From a virus (lineage: Duplodnaviria > Caudoviricetes), in IMG/VR virus record IMGVR_UViG_3300032312_001822, positions 1-64,000 of that record: a stretch of DNA of 64,000 nt. The stretch is one strand, 5' to 3'. The notes under the pieces are model-generated. The model made no database searches, was not told where the DNA came from, and saw nothing but the letters and a program-made list of their open reading frames with translations. Below are positions 6,227 to 46,747 of this stretch, in pieces (positions within the stretch are counted from its first letter, which is position 1; each line of letters opens with the position of its first letter). Both the position numbers and the translations under genes were made by a program.

Positions 6227-6462
6227 TGGCAGCAGAAAGTAACACACCGGTAGATATTGAAATCTGGATTGAGAAAGTAATCAAGTCCTGTGAGACACTG
6301 AGACATCGTATCAATGCTGAGAGATTAGTTAGATTCTATGTAAAAAGATTACAAGAGGGAGGAATGCCTTATTACCAGTATACTCATATTAGAGATAAGT
6401 TTGAAGGTATGTTATGGCATTTAGAAGAAGATATAAAAAGTAAACAACTACTAAAAGGATAA
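6226..6462 (+). CDS. Hypothetical protein
   Basis: ORF track; TAATG coupling. Confidence 0.65.
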   Translation: MAAESNTPVDIEIWIEKVIKSCETLRHRINAERLVRFYVKRLQEGGMPYYQYTHIRDKFEGMLWHLEEDIKSKQLLKG

Positions 6463-6465
6463 TTT

Positions 6466-6873
6466 ATGACCATTACACAAAAATATGTAGAATTTATTTT
6501 AGATAATATTATCCAGGATACTACCACAGTTCAACTTTATAAGCCAATGGAAGACGGTGCTAGAATGTATATTAAGTTAGGTCCTGTATTACACTGTACA
6601 GTTCAAATTGAAGTACTTGAAAAGTATACTCGATCAGCTAAATTAAAATTAACATTTGATAAGTACGAACATGAAGATATCTTTTTTATACCTTTTAGTT
6701 CAAGTCCTGAATCAATTGAAGGTAAAACACGCACTAAAATTGAAAAGATTGTTAATAAAACTTTTATTGATGATAATAGAACCGAAGATATTAAACAGAT
6801 GTATAAAGATAAATATCAAAATTTTGCTTTATCATTATCAAATTTTATAAGTGAAAAAAATGAGCAAAATTAA
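6466..6873 (+). CDS. Hypothetical protein
   Basis: ORF track. Confidence 0.65.
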   Translation: MTITQKYVEFILDNIIQDTTTVQLYKPMEDGARMYIKLGPVLHCTVQIEVLEKYTRSAKLKLTFDKYEHEDIFFIPFSSSPESIEGKTRTKIEKIVNKTFIDDNRTEDIKQMYKDKYQNFALSLSNFISEKNEQN

Positions 6874-42313: not shown

Positions 42314-42599
42314 AGTTTGGCTCCCCTAAATTAAATTCGTATATTAAAGTATAATAATAAAAAATATAAATGTTATGACACAAGTAGAAGAAGTAGTTAA
42401 AATTATTGAAAAAAATAAAAATTTAAAAACCAATGAACTAATTTGGTTACCAGAAGTAAAAAAATATAATTTACCAACTTCTACCATTTTAGTATTAATA
42501 GAGGAAGTAAGAAAAAGTGACTTAAAGTAAAGTTTGGCTCCCCTAAATTGATTTCGTATATTAAAGTATAATAATAAAAAATATAAATGTTATGACACA
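42311..42599 (+). repeat. 72-bp direct repeat pair (70/72 identical) flanking one microgene
   Basis: Copies at 42311-42382 and 42528-42599; each runs from the upstream TAA to ATGACACA. Confidence 0.9.
42375..42530 (+). CDS. 51-aa cassette protein (not in ORF track)
   Basis: MTQVEEVVKIIEKNKNL...VRKSDLK*. Confidence 0.7.
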   Translation: MTQVEEVVKIIEKNKNLKTNELIWLPEVKKYNLPTSTILVLIEEVRKSDLK

Positions 42600-43846: not shown

Positions 43847-44035
43847 ATGATATTACAAGTAATTAATACTAAAAAGGAAAAGTTCAATCAAATTAGAACA
43901 ACTAAAGAAAATTTATTTGCTGATTTAAAATTTCAAGGTTGGCATGTACAAGATTGCAAAATAAGTGAATTAAAAGAAGAATTAGTTCACACATTGTACA
44001 GAAGTGCAGATGGTAAAAACACTAGTACAAGATAA
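43847..44035 (+). CDS. Hypothetical cassette protein
   Basis: ORF track; GTTATG start. Confidence 0.7.
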   Translation: MILQVINTKKEKFNQIRTTKENLFADLKFQGWHVQDCKISELKEELVHTLYRSADGKNTSTR

Positions 44036-44043
44036 AAACAAAG

Positions 44044-44145
44044 AGTCAGGAGTCCATTGGTTGGAAGCACCTCCCCAAGGTTAAGTAACATTAAGGCTGA
44101 CTTTTAATGGCAAAGCTGGAGTAGGTTCAAATCCTACCCTGACTT
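44044..44145 (+). ncRNA. tRNA-like RNA with non-canonical core
   Basis: Acceptor stem agtcagg/cctgact; T arm gtagg-ttcaaat-cctac; D-like arm tcca-ttggt-tgga; 55-nt interior with no canonical anticodon loop; no encoded CCA. Confidence 0.65.
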
Positions 44146-44146
44146 C

Positions 44147-44218
44147 TAATAAATGCCTCATAACCATTTATTATTTTTAATTATCGAAAAAGAGCCTAAC
44201 AGAAATGTTAGGCTTTTT
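44147..44218 (+). ncRNA. Putative antisense sRNA 1 (anti-start hairpin plus terminator)
   Basis: taataaatg-cctcataac-catttatta hairpin, then tttttaattat, then terminator agcctaaca-gaaa-tgttaggct-tttt. Confidence 0.55.
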
Positions 44219-44263
44219 GGGTTTAACTTCGTATATTAGGGCATAATTAAAAATTAATATGTT

Positions 44264-44539
44264 ATGAAAAACGAGAAAGTAGGTTACAGTAGAGAAGCAA
44301 TGATTAAGTTTCTAAAAATTGAAGGTGTTTATGTTATTGGAACAACTGAAGAATTTTCAGGTCAAGAAGGTGGAATTTGGGTTGGGGGTGAAGAAATGGA
44401 TGATTTATTTGAATATTATAATAATAGTTCTAAATTCACATTTGGAGTAGAGAAAAAATTAAACGAAGCTGTTAATAAAAGAGGGTGGTGGTTTAGTTGG
44501 AATGATCCGGGTACAATGATGGTGTGGCCAATTAATTAA
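44264..44539 (+). CDS. Hypothetical cassette protein
   Basis: ORF track; RGWWFSWNDPGT motif. Confidence 0.75.
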   Translation: MKNEKVGYSREAMIKFLKIEGVYVIGTTEEFSGQEGGIWVGGEEMDDLFEYYNNSSKFTFGVEKKLNEAVNKRGWWFSWNDPGTMMVWPIN

Positions 44540-44596
44540 AATTTGGCCCCCCTAAATTGAATTCGTATATTAAAGTATAATTAAAAATTAAATGTT

Positions 44597-44809
44597 ATGA
44601 AAATTATTAAAGTTACAAGTTTATCTGATAAAAAATCAGTTTATCTAAATGTTGAAGCCATAGGACACTTTTACACAGTGCCTGAAAAAAGAGATTATGG
44701 TAGAGTTGAAAAAGTAGAACATACTAGAATTGGAGTTACAACCCACAATAATGGAGGGTTTGAAATAACTGAAACCCCTGAAATGTTAATTAAACTAATT
44801 AATAATTAA
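44597..44809 (+). CDS. Hypothetical cassette protein
   Basis: ORF track; YLNVEAI..EITETPE pattern. Confidence 0.7.
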   Translation: MKIIKVTSLSDKKSVYLNVEAIGHFYTVPEKRDYGRVEKVEHTRIGVTTHNNGGFEITETPEMLIKLINN

Positions 44810-44865
44810 TTGGCTTCTAAATATTAAATTCGTATATTATAGTATAATTAAAAATATAAAAAGTT

Positions 44866-45621
44866 ATGAAAAACATTGAAACATTAAATCAGGAAATTGT
44901 AAAGTTAGAAGAACAAAAAACAAATTTCTTAAATTTAGAACAAGATTTAAAAGATGCAAGATCTAATATCTATGTTAGAGAACAACAAGCATTGAGTGAT
45001 TCTTTATTACCATTTTTTGAAAATTTTAAATATGGTGTTAATATTGAAGTTAAAAGAGACTCTATTTATTTTAAAACTGATCACCCTGATTACACTTATC
45101 AAAAAGAATTATTTAGTATTTATTTAAGAGAAAGATACTCAAGTGAGGGTAAAAAATATGATGGGGCTGATTTATCTTATTACACAACTTCTACTAAAGG
45201 AGAAAATACTTGGGAGTTAAAAAGATTACAATTATTAGGAAGAGTAGCTGAAATTTTAGAAGACCAACAAGGACTTATTGTTGATACAGCTAATGATGTT
45301 TCAAATAAATTCAAAGAAGAATTTAATGAAGTTTATGGTAAAATGGGTGTTGTTGGAAATTCTATTAGAGACTTAAATAACCAAATTAGAGAAATCCAAA
45401 AACAAGTAAAAAGAATTGAATTATTTGGAGAAGGAATCCAATTTGAAAAATCAAGATGCATTACTTTGAAACATAATTATGAACCAAGAGTTGTATCTTT
45501 AAAATTAATTGAAGTTTCTAAATCAGGTAAAAAAGCAACTGCTGTATTTGAGTGGGAGAAAGGAAGAGAATCAAGAGAAGAAGGTGTAAATGTTGAAAAA
45601 ATCATTTACCAAGTTATATAA
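44866..45621 (+). CDS. Coiled-coil hypothetical cassette protein
   Basis: ORF track; 251 aa. Confidence 0.8.
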   Translation: MKNIETLNQEIVKLEEQKTNFLNLEQDLKDARSNIYVREQQALSDSLLPFFENFKYGVNIEVKRDSIYFKTDHPDYTYQKELFSIYLRERYSSEGKKYDGADLSYYTTSTKGENTWELKRLQLLGRVAEILEDQQGLIVDTANDVSNKFKEEFNEVYGKMGVVGNSIRDLNNQIREIQKQVKRIELFGEGIQFEKSRCITLKHNYEPRVVSLKLIEVSKSGKKATAVFEWEKGRESREEGVNVEKIIYQVI

Positions 45622-45683
45622 GTGCCTCATAACCACTTATTATTTTAATTATATTTTGTTAAAGCTCCTTATTAAGGGGCTTT
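45618..45683 (+). ncRNA. Putative antisense sRNA 2 (anti-start hairpin plus hairpin)
   Basis: ataagtg-cctcataac-cacttat hairpin, then tattttaattat, then aaagctcctt-att-aaggggcttt. Confidence 0.55.
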
Positions 45684-45736
45684 GGCTTTCTAAATTATAA
45701 TTCGTATATTTAAGTATAATTAAAAAATAAAATGTT

Positions 45737-45973
45737 ATGATGAGTTTTAAATTGCAAGATGAAGCAAATGGGTCTTTTAAAATATTTGATTTAAGACAAG
45801 CTATAGGTAGAGAATTTAGTGATAATCACTCTCCAACTTTAAGGAGTAAATTATTAGAAGTAAGTGATTGTGGGAATGTTTGTACTGTAATTAGTGTAGA
45901 AGCCTATAATAAACAAGGGGGTAAAGTAAGTAAACAACCTTCTTATTTAACTTGGAATGCCTTATTTTATTAA
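45737..45973 (+). CDS. Hypothetical cassette protein
   Basis: ORF track. Confidence 0.7.
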   Translation: MMSFKLQDEANGSFKIFDLRQAIGREFSDNHSPTLRSKLLEVSDCGNVCTVISVEAYNKQGGKVSKQPSYLTWNALFY

Positions 45974-46168: not shown

Positions 46169-46387
46169 ATGAGTTTACATTCAGTTTACATATGTGAAGA
46201 TTTTGAAATTGGTAATGGTATTTTAACTATTTGGGATGCCAAAGAAGTAGCTAAGGTAAAAGATATAGATGGTTTTAATAGAATTAATGAAATTCTAATT
46301 TCTGAAACGGGAGTATTACCTAATGGAATTATATGTCCTAATTTATTTCATAATTCTGGATTTTTTGATATTATACTTTTTGAATAA
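46169..46387 (+). CDS. Hypothetical cassette protein
   Basis: ORF track; cassette-type start region without its own promoter. Confidence 0.7.
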   Translation: MSLHSVYICEDFEIGNGILTIWDAKEVAKVKDIDGFNRINEILISETGVLPNGIICPNLFHNSGFFDIILFE

Positions 46388-46444: not shown

Positions 46445-46747
46445 ATGACAAAGAAAGAAAGATTAAGATTAAATACAGTTCATGTAATTGAAATGGTACA
46501 AAAGAATTTTGAAGTAAGTACTGATTTTTGTGATGATGAAGGTCATGGTTATTTTACTTTTGGGGTAATGAAAGATGGAGTAGAATACTTATTTGATTTA
46601 AGTAGAAGAGATTTTAGTGTTATTATCCATAAAATAAGAGGTGAAAAAGATTATGAAATTGGAGCTGATTTGGAGGCTGAATTAGAAAGATTTATTTTCT
46701 TAGAATTAGAAATTTCAAACGCCCGTATTGATAATATGATTAAATAA
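46445..46747 (+). CDS. Hypothetical cassette protein
   Basis: ORF track. Confidence 0.7.
   Translation: MTKKERLRLNTVHVIEMVQKNFEVSTDFCDDEGHGYFTFGVMKDGVEYLFDLSRRDFSVIIHKIRGEKDYEIGADLEAELERFIFLELEISNARIDNMIK

Follow-up and report, generated by a model that had tools for sequence, protein, structure and literature searches.

The early-gene cassettes and two hairpin sites

The window (the whole 64,000-nt stretch of DNA analysed, part of a 90.6-kb contig) comes from a Flavobacterium-type phage in which about 20 early genes share a short leader. A total of 22 sense-strand cassettes were found, all conforming to one consensus, and 21 of these lie between 35.9 and 48.8 kb. Single small genes are preceded by a recurring composite early-promoter motif, which often has a stem-loop ahead of it, an arrangement that resembles the PeSL arrays of T4-type phages in organisation and not by homology. 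Terminator-like sites numbered 10, compared to 3.9 expected. Neither PHROGs nor Pfam returned a function for the five genes that border the two hairpins described here (43847-45973). Of two further upstream genes included in the scan, one gave a DUF932 match and the other a weak match to a eukaryotic N-terminal domain.

Both sites consist of a first hairpin (hairpin 1), a U/A tail and a second hairpin (Table 1), an architecture that a sequence-only reading had described and that sequence and folds confirmed. Hairpin 1 of copy 1 has nine Watson-Crick pairs around the loop CCTCATAAC and is followed by the tail TTTTTAATTAT, while that of copy 2 has seven pairs. The 9-nt loop CCUCAUAAC is common to both, and at the third stem pair, counting from the loop, copy 1 has A-U where copy 2 has G-C, which amounts to one compensatory change. 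Hairpin 1 alone folded weakly (-4.0 and -3.6 kcal/mol for copies 1 and 2). The two-hairpin segments folded better than 200 of 200 shuffles (z of -3.8 and -3.2), mostly because of the second hairpins, which are intrinsic terminators, each with a G+C-rich 13-bp stem and a U tract. This tract reads UUUUU after copy 1 and only UUUGG after copy 2, making the latter weaker. Terminator 2 is probably leaky, since its U tract is broken by the TTTGGC element of the next promoter, and the placement of the copy 1 terminator hairpin on the minus strand by a terminator scan suggests that terminator 1 may be bidirectional. Several upstream promoters feed each of the two terminators. A sense-strand mini-ORF starting from the 5' arm (M/V-P-H-N-H-L-L-F...) was rejected because its length shifts with single-base tail differences among copies and relatives.

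A tRNA-like element ends no more than 1 nt before copy 1. Its score against the Rfam tRNA model falls below the 29-bit cut-off (Table 1), and the ortholog in L002 passes with 33.6 bits and has a 66-nt insert in the anticodon region. ARAGORN found no tRNA in the 64-kb window, and no Rfam family reached its gathering threshold there. Matches obtained at low threshold (MicC, HPnc0260 and others) only reflected the terminator hairpin.

Table 1. Features at the two hairpin sites and the third inverted copy, with positions in the window.
Feature	Position	Strand	Remarks
tRNA-like element	44044-44146	+	Directly 5' of copy 1; Rfam tRNA model 18.8 bits
Hairpin 1, copy 1	44147-44173	+	9-bp stem, 9-nt loop CCUCAUAAC; 5' arm 44147-44155, loop 44156-44164, 3' arm 44165-44173, tail 44174-44184; from sequence and fold
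Anti-leader, copy 1	44156-44184	+	Inverted leader, from predicted transcript start to AUG + 5 nt; top minus-strand match of the leader profile
Intrinsic terminator 1	44189-44218	+	13-bp stem, then UUUUU (TTTTT in the DNA); from fold and terminator scan
Next cassette: promoter core, leader, start codon (ATG 44264)	44228-44270	+	Predicted 3' strand of long-range helix; start region pairs with upstream RNA, probability 0.73
Hairpin 1, copy 2	45618-45640	+	7-bp stem, same loop as copy 1; 5' arm 45618-45624, includes TAA stop (45619-45621) of the 251-aa gene; loop 45625-45633, 3' arm 45634-45640, tail to 45652
Anti-leader, copy 2	45625-45652	+	From leader comparison and pattern search
Terminator 2	45658-45686	+	U tract broken by TTTGGC; from sequence and fold
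Next cassette: promoter core, leader, start codon (ATG 45737)	45701-45743	+	Predicted pairing probability 0.76
Third inverted cassette copy	46347-46376	+	Degenerate; conserved in L002, L006 and L239; predicted to pair with leader of gene at 46445, probability 0.70

An inverted copy of the early leader

Read backwards, the stretch from the loop through the 3' arm to the tail is an inverted leader of the early cassettes, start codon included, which we refer to as the anti-leader; the sense RNA is indeed antisense to the shared leader and start codon, as had been claimed. This 29-nt inverted leader is the significant feature, and not the loop word. The exact loop 9-mer occurs three times in the 90.6 kb, and with one mismatch it was found 13 times where 12.2 were expected, a chance-level frequency that makes the loop word alone not significant. 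Clear anti-leaders in the 90.6-kb contig were limited to the two sites, plus one degenerate third copy that has no terminator and lies within the 3' end of an ORF (46169-46387). A search for the pattern ATAATTAAAA followed by 0 to 12 nt and GTTATG gave 15 forward and 2 inverted matches, the latter exactly at both sites. With a profile HMM of the leader, the two sites ranked first and third on the minus strand, at E-values (0.098 and 6.3) that are weak because of indels and AT bias. The TTCGTATATT promoter core was absent from the minus strand at both sites, in agreement with the earlier statement that no inverted promoter accompanies them.

The transcript start of the cassettes was predicted from the geometry of the Flavobacterium -7 element (T-12 to G-5, PMC6847099). 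The inverted copies in copy 1 and in the related phage immuto begin no more than 1 nt from this predicted start, which fits an RNA-level logic, and in copy 2 and its orthologs the complementarity runs a few bases upstream of it. By sequence comparison the anti-leader fits the family consensus and not the adjacent leader specifically, the latter ranking 17/27, 5/27, 6/17, 9/17, 13/18, 3/4, 1/13, 11/11, 2/12, 6/17 and 3/5 among the leaders compared. Since these ranks are scattered, the test does not separate pairing in cis from pairing in trans.

Anti-leaders in related phages

Judging from the relatives, the conserved feature is the anti-leader and not the hairpin. The sequence-only reading had suggested searching related genomes for the loop and stem, and this search recovered anti-leaders matching each phage's own leader variant, while in the immuto-like and L087-like phages the hairpin itself was absent. 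In the immuto-like phages the anti-leader is a 15-mer that begins their own leaders; it directly follows the stop codon of the 251-aa gene ortholog and precedes a terminator. The whole 160-kb immuto genome contains this 15-mer 16 times forward and once inverted (0 matches for the reversed control), and the complementarity ends at least 10 nt before the AUG. A third lineage (L087, L017, L089) carries the complement of its own CAATAAAGG-type leader. The anti-leader thus follows the leader variant of each lineage.

The claim of covarying stems held for one compensatory pair only. The loop is kept in L225 with a C-A mismatch in the stem, and because the hairpin is limited to this lineage and imperfect in L225, the covariation comes down to that single pair. 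When viral and metagenome contigs were scanned for the loop plus tail pattern, most matches were chance ones in AT-rich DNA, and true new modules were observed only in L151, L225 and L239, so that no deeper stem covariation was obtained. A strong upstream hairpin was present at 10 of 12 anti-leader junctions compared to 36 of the 137 junctions that lack an anti-leader (Fisher p = 1.4e-4, with no phylogenetic independence among the modules).

Predicted pairing within read-through RNA

In RNAs reading through the two sites (44140-44300 and 45608-45775), the anti-leader was predicted to pair with the next leader, including its GUUAUGA, at pair probabilities of about 0.9. The start region was predicted to pair with RNA from upstream of the promoter at all three anti-leader junctions (0.70 to 0.76, Table 1), while the other 18 of the 21 cassettes tested in the contig had a median start-region pairing probability of about 0.1. 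Start regions in own-promoter transcripts were about 0.2 paired. The long-range helix was the minimum-energy fold in 11 of 11 modules from four lineages. All of these structures are thermodynamic predictions in sequence of 29% GC, where U-rich and A-rich stretches pair easily. Strand preference by G-U wobble was also compared, and the plus-strand duplex was better in 12/12, 17/17 and 5/5 leaders of L087, L017 and L089, respectively; the asymmetry was reversed in this phage (3/27 and 0/27) and is therefore not a general strand test.

We tentatively favour, at somewhat below even confidence, a model in which the anti-leaders act through RNA-level occlusion of the leader and AUG, mainly in cis. 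An RNA running on from an upstream promoter would hold both strands, the anti-leader and the next leader, having passed the terminator at copies 1 and 2 or met none at the third copy. The long-range helix would enclose the terminator and promoter sequence and bury the start codon of the next gene, while RNA from that gene's own promoter, without the anti-leader, would stay open. Such a helix, if formed in vivo on RNA transcribed through the site, would affect translation as a back-up to the terminator and insulate the downstream gene from upstream transcription. Start-site structure lowers initiation in Flavobacterium johnsoniae (PMC6847099), and a paired leader and AUG would be expected to block initiation in a host without Shine-Dalgarno sites, which needs an unstructured start region. 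The copy 2 complementarity that runs past the predicted transcript start and the third copy without a terminator both fit pairing in cis better than a terminator-defined trans RNA. As an additional route, trans pairing with any of the cassette leaders may be open to the terminated 3' ends, about 75 nt that comprise hairpin, tail and terminator.

Comparison with known systems

A close parallel is that of the T4 genes e, soc, 49 and I-TevI (reviewed in PMC3014915), where a helix buries the start codon in RNA from an upstream promoter, and transcripts from the own promoter lack the 5' strand and hence are translated. The same burial is predicted at the sites described here, and own-promoter transcripts likewise lack the 5' strand, with the promoter cores (from 44228 and 45701) lying between the two strands. 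In T4 the own promoter is of a later class and provides temporal control, whereas here one consensus class covers the promoters on both sides of the anti-leaders. The helix here is also long-range (a 50-110-nt loop) and encloses a terminator, and its 5' strand is a copy of a leader common to about 20 genes. Three observations sit poorly with a role in cis: the same-class promoters, with which the temporal logic of the T4 precedents is missing and silencing of read-through copies has no obvious benefit; the placement of the anti-leader upstream of a terminator, which is needless for such a role; and the masking of part of the anti-leader by hairpin 1, a design more typical of trans antisense RNAs.

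In CopA/CopT and RNA-OUT/RNA-IN, as at our sites, the loop of a hairpin is the complement of a start region, and at our sites the YUNR-type loop could initiate the pairing. Those RNAs come from a promoter of their own on the strand complementary to the target, whereas the element here is a sense-strand segment of another locus and no inverted promoter was found. The c4 antisense RNA of phages P1 and P7 was reportedly the subject of work by Citron and Schuster and by Hartmann et al. in 1995. Like the anti-leaders, c4 is a sense-strand antisense RNA in the same transcript as its downstream target (PMC5320573). RNase P excises c4 at a tRNA-like feature, and the c4 loops base-pair to a ribosome-binding site, which they block in part. 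It differs in having one target operon in a temperate immunity circuit, compared to about 20 potential targets among tandem promoter cassettes here, and the Rfam C4 model gave no gathering-level match in the 64-kb window and was not among the matches at E<=10 in 43950-44300. The icaR mRNA of Staphylococcus aureus (PMC3868564) carries a 3' UTR motif upstream of its terminator that is complementary to the initiation region, with pairing possible within the same molecule; this anti-SD-like motif pairs with its own SD, whereas the target here is an SD-less leader with its AUG and the best-predicted partner is the leader of the next gene. PeSL cassettes (PMC2839356, PMC4122927) are likewise single small genes, each behind a conserved terminator and early-promoter motif, and recombination within such arrays could plausibly give rise to inverted copies, although no mention of inverted copies was found in PMC4122927. 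They belong to another phage group, and the promoter here is Bacteroidetes-type.

Alternative explanations

The sequence-only reading had held that discrete 3'-end-derived small RNAs, one of them freed by RNase P or RNase Z at the tRNA-like element, silence the early regulon in trans through pairing of the loop with GUUAUG, which we consider unlikely. Pairing was enriched for cassette leaders as claimed, with duplex energies of -14.9 and -13.7 kcal/mol compared to -7.9 and -7.1 kcal/mol for 90 other gene starts and about -6.4 kcal/mol for shuffled anti-leaders. With the opening cost included, mean net binding in trans was -10.8 and -9.5 kcal/mol for copies 1 and 2, and 20 of 22 and 19 of 22 leaders, respectively, were bound at -6 kcal/mol or lower. 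Shuffled U-rich anti-leaders reached -7.5 (sd 1.5) and -8.2 (sd 1.0) kcal/mol, a margin of only 2.2 and 1.3 sd, and in these calculations trans pairing was feasible but barely beat the shuffled controls. A seed just upstream of a terminator hairpin is the architecture of 3'-UTR-derived small RNAs, and loop and tail are predicted to remain unpaired in that position. The loop also contains a YUNR motif (CUCA) positioned to present the following CAUAAC for pairing, and U-turn loops speed antisense pairing (PMC6562991). The fit to the consensus leader rather than the neighbour, the tRNA-like element abutting copy 1 with its tRNA-scoring ortholog in L002, and the several promoters feeding each terminator are further points in favour of small RNAs. 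However, the hairpin is missing from the immuto-like and L087-like lineages and imperfect in L225, the immuto complementarity stops at least 10 nt short of the AUG, and that of copy 2 reaches upstream beyond the 5' end predicted for the mRNA. Anti-leaders would come from only two transcription-unit ends for about 20 target leaders, and the third copy, without a terminator and inside a coding region, cannot be a terminator-defined small RNA. The antisense match to the shared leader, the enriched pairing and the anti-leaders kept in relatives support the proposed master switch; the lineage-specific hairpin, the modest margin over shuffles, the strongly predicted cis route and the third copy weaken it, leaving the interpretation as a whole partly supported. 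It also seems doubtful to us that a family of Flavobacterium phages encodes a sense-strand global translational switch, in which 3'-end fragments with an inverted early leader (here with an initiator-tRNA-like CUCAUAA loop) would accumulate early, pair with the GUUAUGA of about 20 early mRNAs in trans and shut off early protein synthesis in a host without Shine-Dalgarno sites.

The sites could instead be non-functional relics, inverted cassettes that arose by recombination among repeats, were tolerated after loss of the promoter core and were kept similar to the forward leaders by gene conversion, although we find this improbable. Read backwards, copy 1 and the immuto element resemble a cassette with the -7 element precisely deleted and TTCG joined to the leader, coding sequence has taken in the third, degenerate copy, and the module follows different genes in this phage, L151 and L225. 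The match to the family consensus is what conversion would give, and such cassette arrays are recombination substrates in T4-type phages (PeSLs; PMC2839356, PMC4122927). Yet the element is kept at the orthologous site across lineages whose neighbouring protein is only 54-55% identical, where neutral intergenic sequence should be unrecognisable, and immuto retains exactly one inverted copy in its whole genome. The constant extent (leader only) and position (immediately ahead of the next promoter and mostly followed by a terminator), the compensatory stem change, and a tract of 15-29 nt, short for conversion, also argue against relics. Very unlikely, in our estimation, is a protein-mediated role, whether by a DNA-binding regulator reading the leader in both orientations or by a ribosomal or initiation component bound by the CUCAUAA-loop hairpin. 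The leader core does hold the palindrome TAATTA, and the loop is invariant in this phage, L002, L151 and L225, though most leaders offer no pairing partner for its CC(U) part. It includes the initiator-tRNA anticodon loop sequence CUCAUAA, and the loop 8-mer CUCAUAAC presumably equals positions 32-39 of bacterial initiator tRNA. The shared start context, in turn, resembles the T4 RegA SELEX operator (PMC3014915). Loop identity is, however, mostly automatic as the complement of GUUAUGA, other lineages lack the hairpin, and 1 inverted compared to 16-20 forward sites follows no obvious operator logic. No candidate protein was found, and a RegA-like repressor was rejected because PF01818 had no match in the contig (55% complete). 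Least credible of all, and close to being dismissed, are minus-strand promoters or gene starts giving an antisense transcript or micro-protein, which the earlier reading had itself named as a refuting alternative. Copy 2 has a perfect TATAAT on the minus strand, which a sigma-70-style scan pairs with TTAATA at 16 nt, and an ATG stands in cassette position from which translation of either copy would start M-R-H-L. Neither the conserved promoter core nor the TTTGG element is present, however, and the host group uses -33/-7 promoters and not TATAAT (PMC6847099). The ORFs of 26 and 19 codons overlap the tRNA-like element and a sense-strand gene, share only stem-fixed residues and were rejected; immuto has no ATG there.

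Implications

Conserved antisense hairpins in cassette arrays call for caution, as they may be cis elements or recombination relics and not small RNAs. The co-variation of anti-leader and leader across lineages supplies ready natural compensatory variants, and since vB_FspM_immuto, a cultured relative, has a known host (Flavobacterium sp. LMO8), the idea is directly testable. If functional, the anti-leaders would provide a simple, sequence-encoded translation control over a whole promoter-cassette array, either by insulating its units or by silencing the class, and would do so in Bacteroidetes, where initiation proceeds without Shine-Dalgarno pairing and RNA regulation is poorly known.

Early cassettes and their inverted leaders

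The contig, whose first 64 kb make up the window, is 90.6 kb long with 29% GC and an estimated completeness of 55%, and its closest named relatives are the vB_FspM_immuto Flavobacterium phages. Early cassettes were observed on the plus strand, 21 between 35.9 and 48.8 kb and a 22nd at 113. Their promoter geometry agrees with the Bacteroidetes -33/-7 type (TTTG / TAHHTTTG, T-12 to G-5; PMC6847099), with an imperfect match at -7; on this geometry, transcription would begin at or close to the A of ATAATT. Two neighbouring cassettes (42336-42380 and 42553-42597) were identical in promoter, leader and first codons, suggesting that this part of the array recently underwent duplication or conversion. 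We also observed in the immuto genome (L001:3880-3990, ~67.5 kb) a complete minus-strand cassette promoter facing G+C-rich, non-coding-looking sequence, where it may drive an RNA gene.

Cassette layout and features around the inverted leader copies (window coordinates)
Feature	Position	Description
Early cassette, parts in order		TTTGGC element, spacer, core TTCGTATATT..TATAAT, short A/U leader, usually GTTATGA at start codon
tRNA-like element	44044-44146	
Copy 1, hairpin 1	44147-44173	
Copy 1, anti-leader	44156-44184	
Copy 1, second hairpin	44189-44218	
Copy 2, hairpin 1	45618-45640	251-aa gene ends in 5' arm
Copy 2, anti-leader	45625-45652	
Copy 2, second hairpin	45658-45686	
Third, degenerate inverted cassette copy	46347-46376	within 3' end of ORF 46169-46387; from junction scan

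Both hairpins described by the sequence-only reading were recovered, with an identical 9-nt loop on perfect 9-bp and 7-bp stems that differ by one A-U to G-C double change, each followed by UUUU(U)AAUUAU and a strong second hairpin. Hairpin 1 alone is weak (about -4 kcal/mol). Each second hairpin is an intrinsic terminator; that of copy 2 has a poor U tract overlapping the TTTGGC of the next promoter. In some relatives (L089, reverse complement, 1305-1345; L225:2375-2410) the -33-type element of the next promoter (TTGC/TTGG) was observed in the loop or 3' arm of the terminator hairpin, so that terminator and promoter physically overlap.

As had been proposed, the loop, 3' arm and tail, when reversed, correspond to the cassette leader; the match (the anti-leader) runs from near the predicted start of the transcript to five bases past the ATG. 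In the 90.6 kb, leader-type words had 15 forward occurrences and exactly two inverted ones. The 9-mer loop word by itself was statistically not unusual in this sequence and the leader-profile E-values for the inverted copies were weak, so what makes the element significant is its length, position and recurrence. Testing each 140 nt upstream of a promoter for complementarity to the leaders, at all junctions, gave the third copy, which has no more than 7 mismatches over 30 nt to the reverse complement of true cassettes, is kept in three relatives (L002, L006, L239) and has no terminator after it.

Conservation in related phages

Base-for-base conservation was observed for both hairpins in L002/L006, and for the copy 2 hairpin in L004/L007, whose compared DNA covers the copy 2 site; these four share 84-88% identity with the window phage in the 251-aa protein. 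Copy 2 is also present in L239, and in L151 its module, including the 5' arm, lies behind a different gene, which makes the arm part of the module. The more distant L225 retains the loop and anti-leader with a C-A mismatch in the stem. Immuto-like phages (54-55% identity) are without hairpin 1 and carry TTTT(T)AATTATTGAT directly 3' of the orthologous gene's stop codon, ahead of a terminator; this sequence is complementary to the opening 15 nt of the leader variant that these phages use. Across the whole immuto genome (160 kb) the leader word had 16 forward occurrences, each within the early array, and a single inverted one at the orthologous site, with 0 matches to a reversed-word control. 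A third lineage (L087, L017, L089) has a CAATAAAGG-type leader and a matching complement ahead of a terminator, which in L017 covers the start codon. We also observed UUUUAAUUAA, a leader-core complement, in the loop of a short hairpin directly 5' of a cassette promoter (L087:4940-4990; L017, reverse complement, ~6455-6505), a different way to present an anti-leader.

Because relatives keep the anti-leader while hairpin 1 varies or is absent in the more distant ones, the conserved feature is an anti-leader adjoining the following promoter, usually before a terminator. A strong hairpin was found at 10 of 12 anti-leader junctions versus 36 of 137 without one (p = 1.4e-4, the modules not being independent). 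As to the covarying stems noted earlier, the compensatory change stands, but it concerns one pair, and hairpin 1 is an elaboration specific to the lineage.

The tRNA-like element represents a tRNA that has either decayed or been interrupted. Its L002 ortholog (L002:7351-7480) scored 33.6 bits, above the Rfam tRNA cut-off, with a Leu/Ser-type D arm and a 66-nt insert at the expected anticodon-loop site, and the T stem has two compensatory double changes between the window phage and L002.

Start context

The hairpin 1 loop 8-mer CUCAUAAC is presumably identical to bacterial initiator tRNA over positions 32-39, and we take the shared GUUAUGA context to be the complement of that tRNA's extended anticodon loop (positions 33-39). 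GUUAUGA across the cassette starts (e.g. 44261-44267) also resembles the T4 RegA SELEX operator aaAAUUGUUAUGUAA (PMC3014915). At position -3, where A is favoured (PMC6847099), the cassettes have U. A RegA homolog was not found in the 55% complete contig. Given these two resemblances, no antisense RNA is needed to account for the conserved start context.

Pairing predictions and alternative explanations

We tentatively favour, at rather less than even confidence, RNA-level occlusion of the start site, mainly in cis. In RNA running from upstream into the next cassette, the anti-leader would pair with the next leader and AUG, and the helix would enclose terminator and promoter sequence. For the start region, the predicted probability of pairing with upstream RNA was 0.73, 0.76 and 0.70 where an anti-leader is present (three junctions) versus a median of about 0.1 at the other 18, and start regions in own-promoter transcripts were predicted to be about 0.2 paired. 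For the third copy, the predicted partner is the leader and AUG of the gene that begins at 46445, and in this model ribosomes completing ORF 46169-46387 would melt the helix, in effect coupling translation of the two genes. The missing terminator at the third copy leans to cis, as does the complementarity of copy 2, which extends beyond the predicted mRNA start by a few bases in the upstream direction. The anti-leader fits the family consensus and not the neighbouring leader, so this match test does not separate cis from trans, nor does G-U asymmetry, which favours the sense strand in one lineage only.

The master switch suggested by the sequence-only reading, with anti-leader RNAs acting on early leaders in trans, appears unlikely. 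The elements' location directly upstream of a terminator, the adjoining tRNA-like element at copy 1 and a self-masked hairpin exposing a YUNR motif (CUCA) in its loop speak for it; YUNR motifs present the following bases for pairing (PMC6562991), here CAUAAC. Duplex energies of the anti-leaders to the 22 leaders averaged -14.9 and -13.7 kcal/mol, compared with -7.9 and -7.1 for the starts of 90 other genes; shuffled anti-leaders gave about -6.4. After opening hairpin 1 and mRNA structure, net binding was -10.8 and -9.5 kcal/mol, only somewhat better than shuffled U-rich anti-leaders (-7.5, sd 1.5, and -8.2, sd 1.0), and thus trans pairing is feasible with a small specificity margin. Overall, the sequence-only reading is borne out and extended as an observation and partly supported as an interpretation, and the values reached by the shuffled anti-leaders justify the earlier caution that AT-richness inflates complementarity. 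Copy 1 and the immuto element, reversed, resemble a cassette minus its -7 element, with TTCG directly joined to the leader, and such cassette arrays recombine (the promoter/stem-loop cassettes, PeSLs, of T4-type phages; PMC2839356, PMC4122927), so the elements could be inverted cassettes that have been disarmed and that gene conversion has homogenised. We consider this doubtful, given an element kept at the orthologous site despite about 45% protein divergence, its occurrence just once in the 160-kb immuto genome, and its consistent position and extent. Protein-mediated action seems quite improbable, and minus-strand gene starts highly so: the inverted copies lack the promoter core and, as previously noted, have no inverted promoter, and are therefore not minus-strand cassettes.

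For the favoured occlusion in cis, T4 e, soc, 49 and I-TevI (PMC3014915) follow the same logic of a start buried in upstream-initiated RNA; unlike in those genes, internal and upstream promoters here share one class, and hence no temporal switch is obvious. For a sense-strand antisense cut from its target's own transcript, P1/P7 c4 (PMC5320573) is the closest analogue, and that of pairing between a 3'-UTR and a start site is icaR (PMC3868564).
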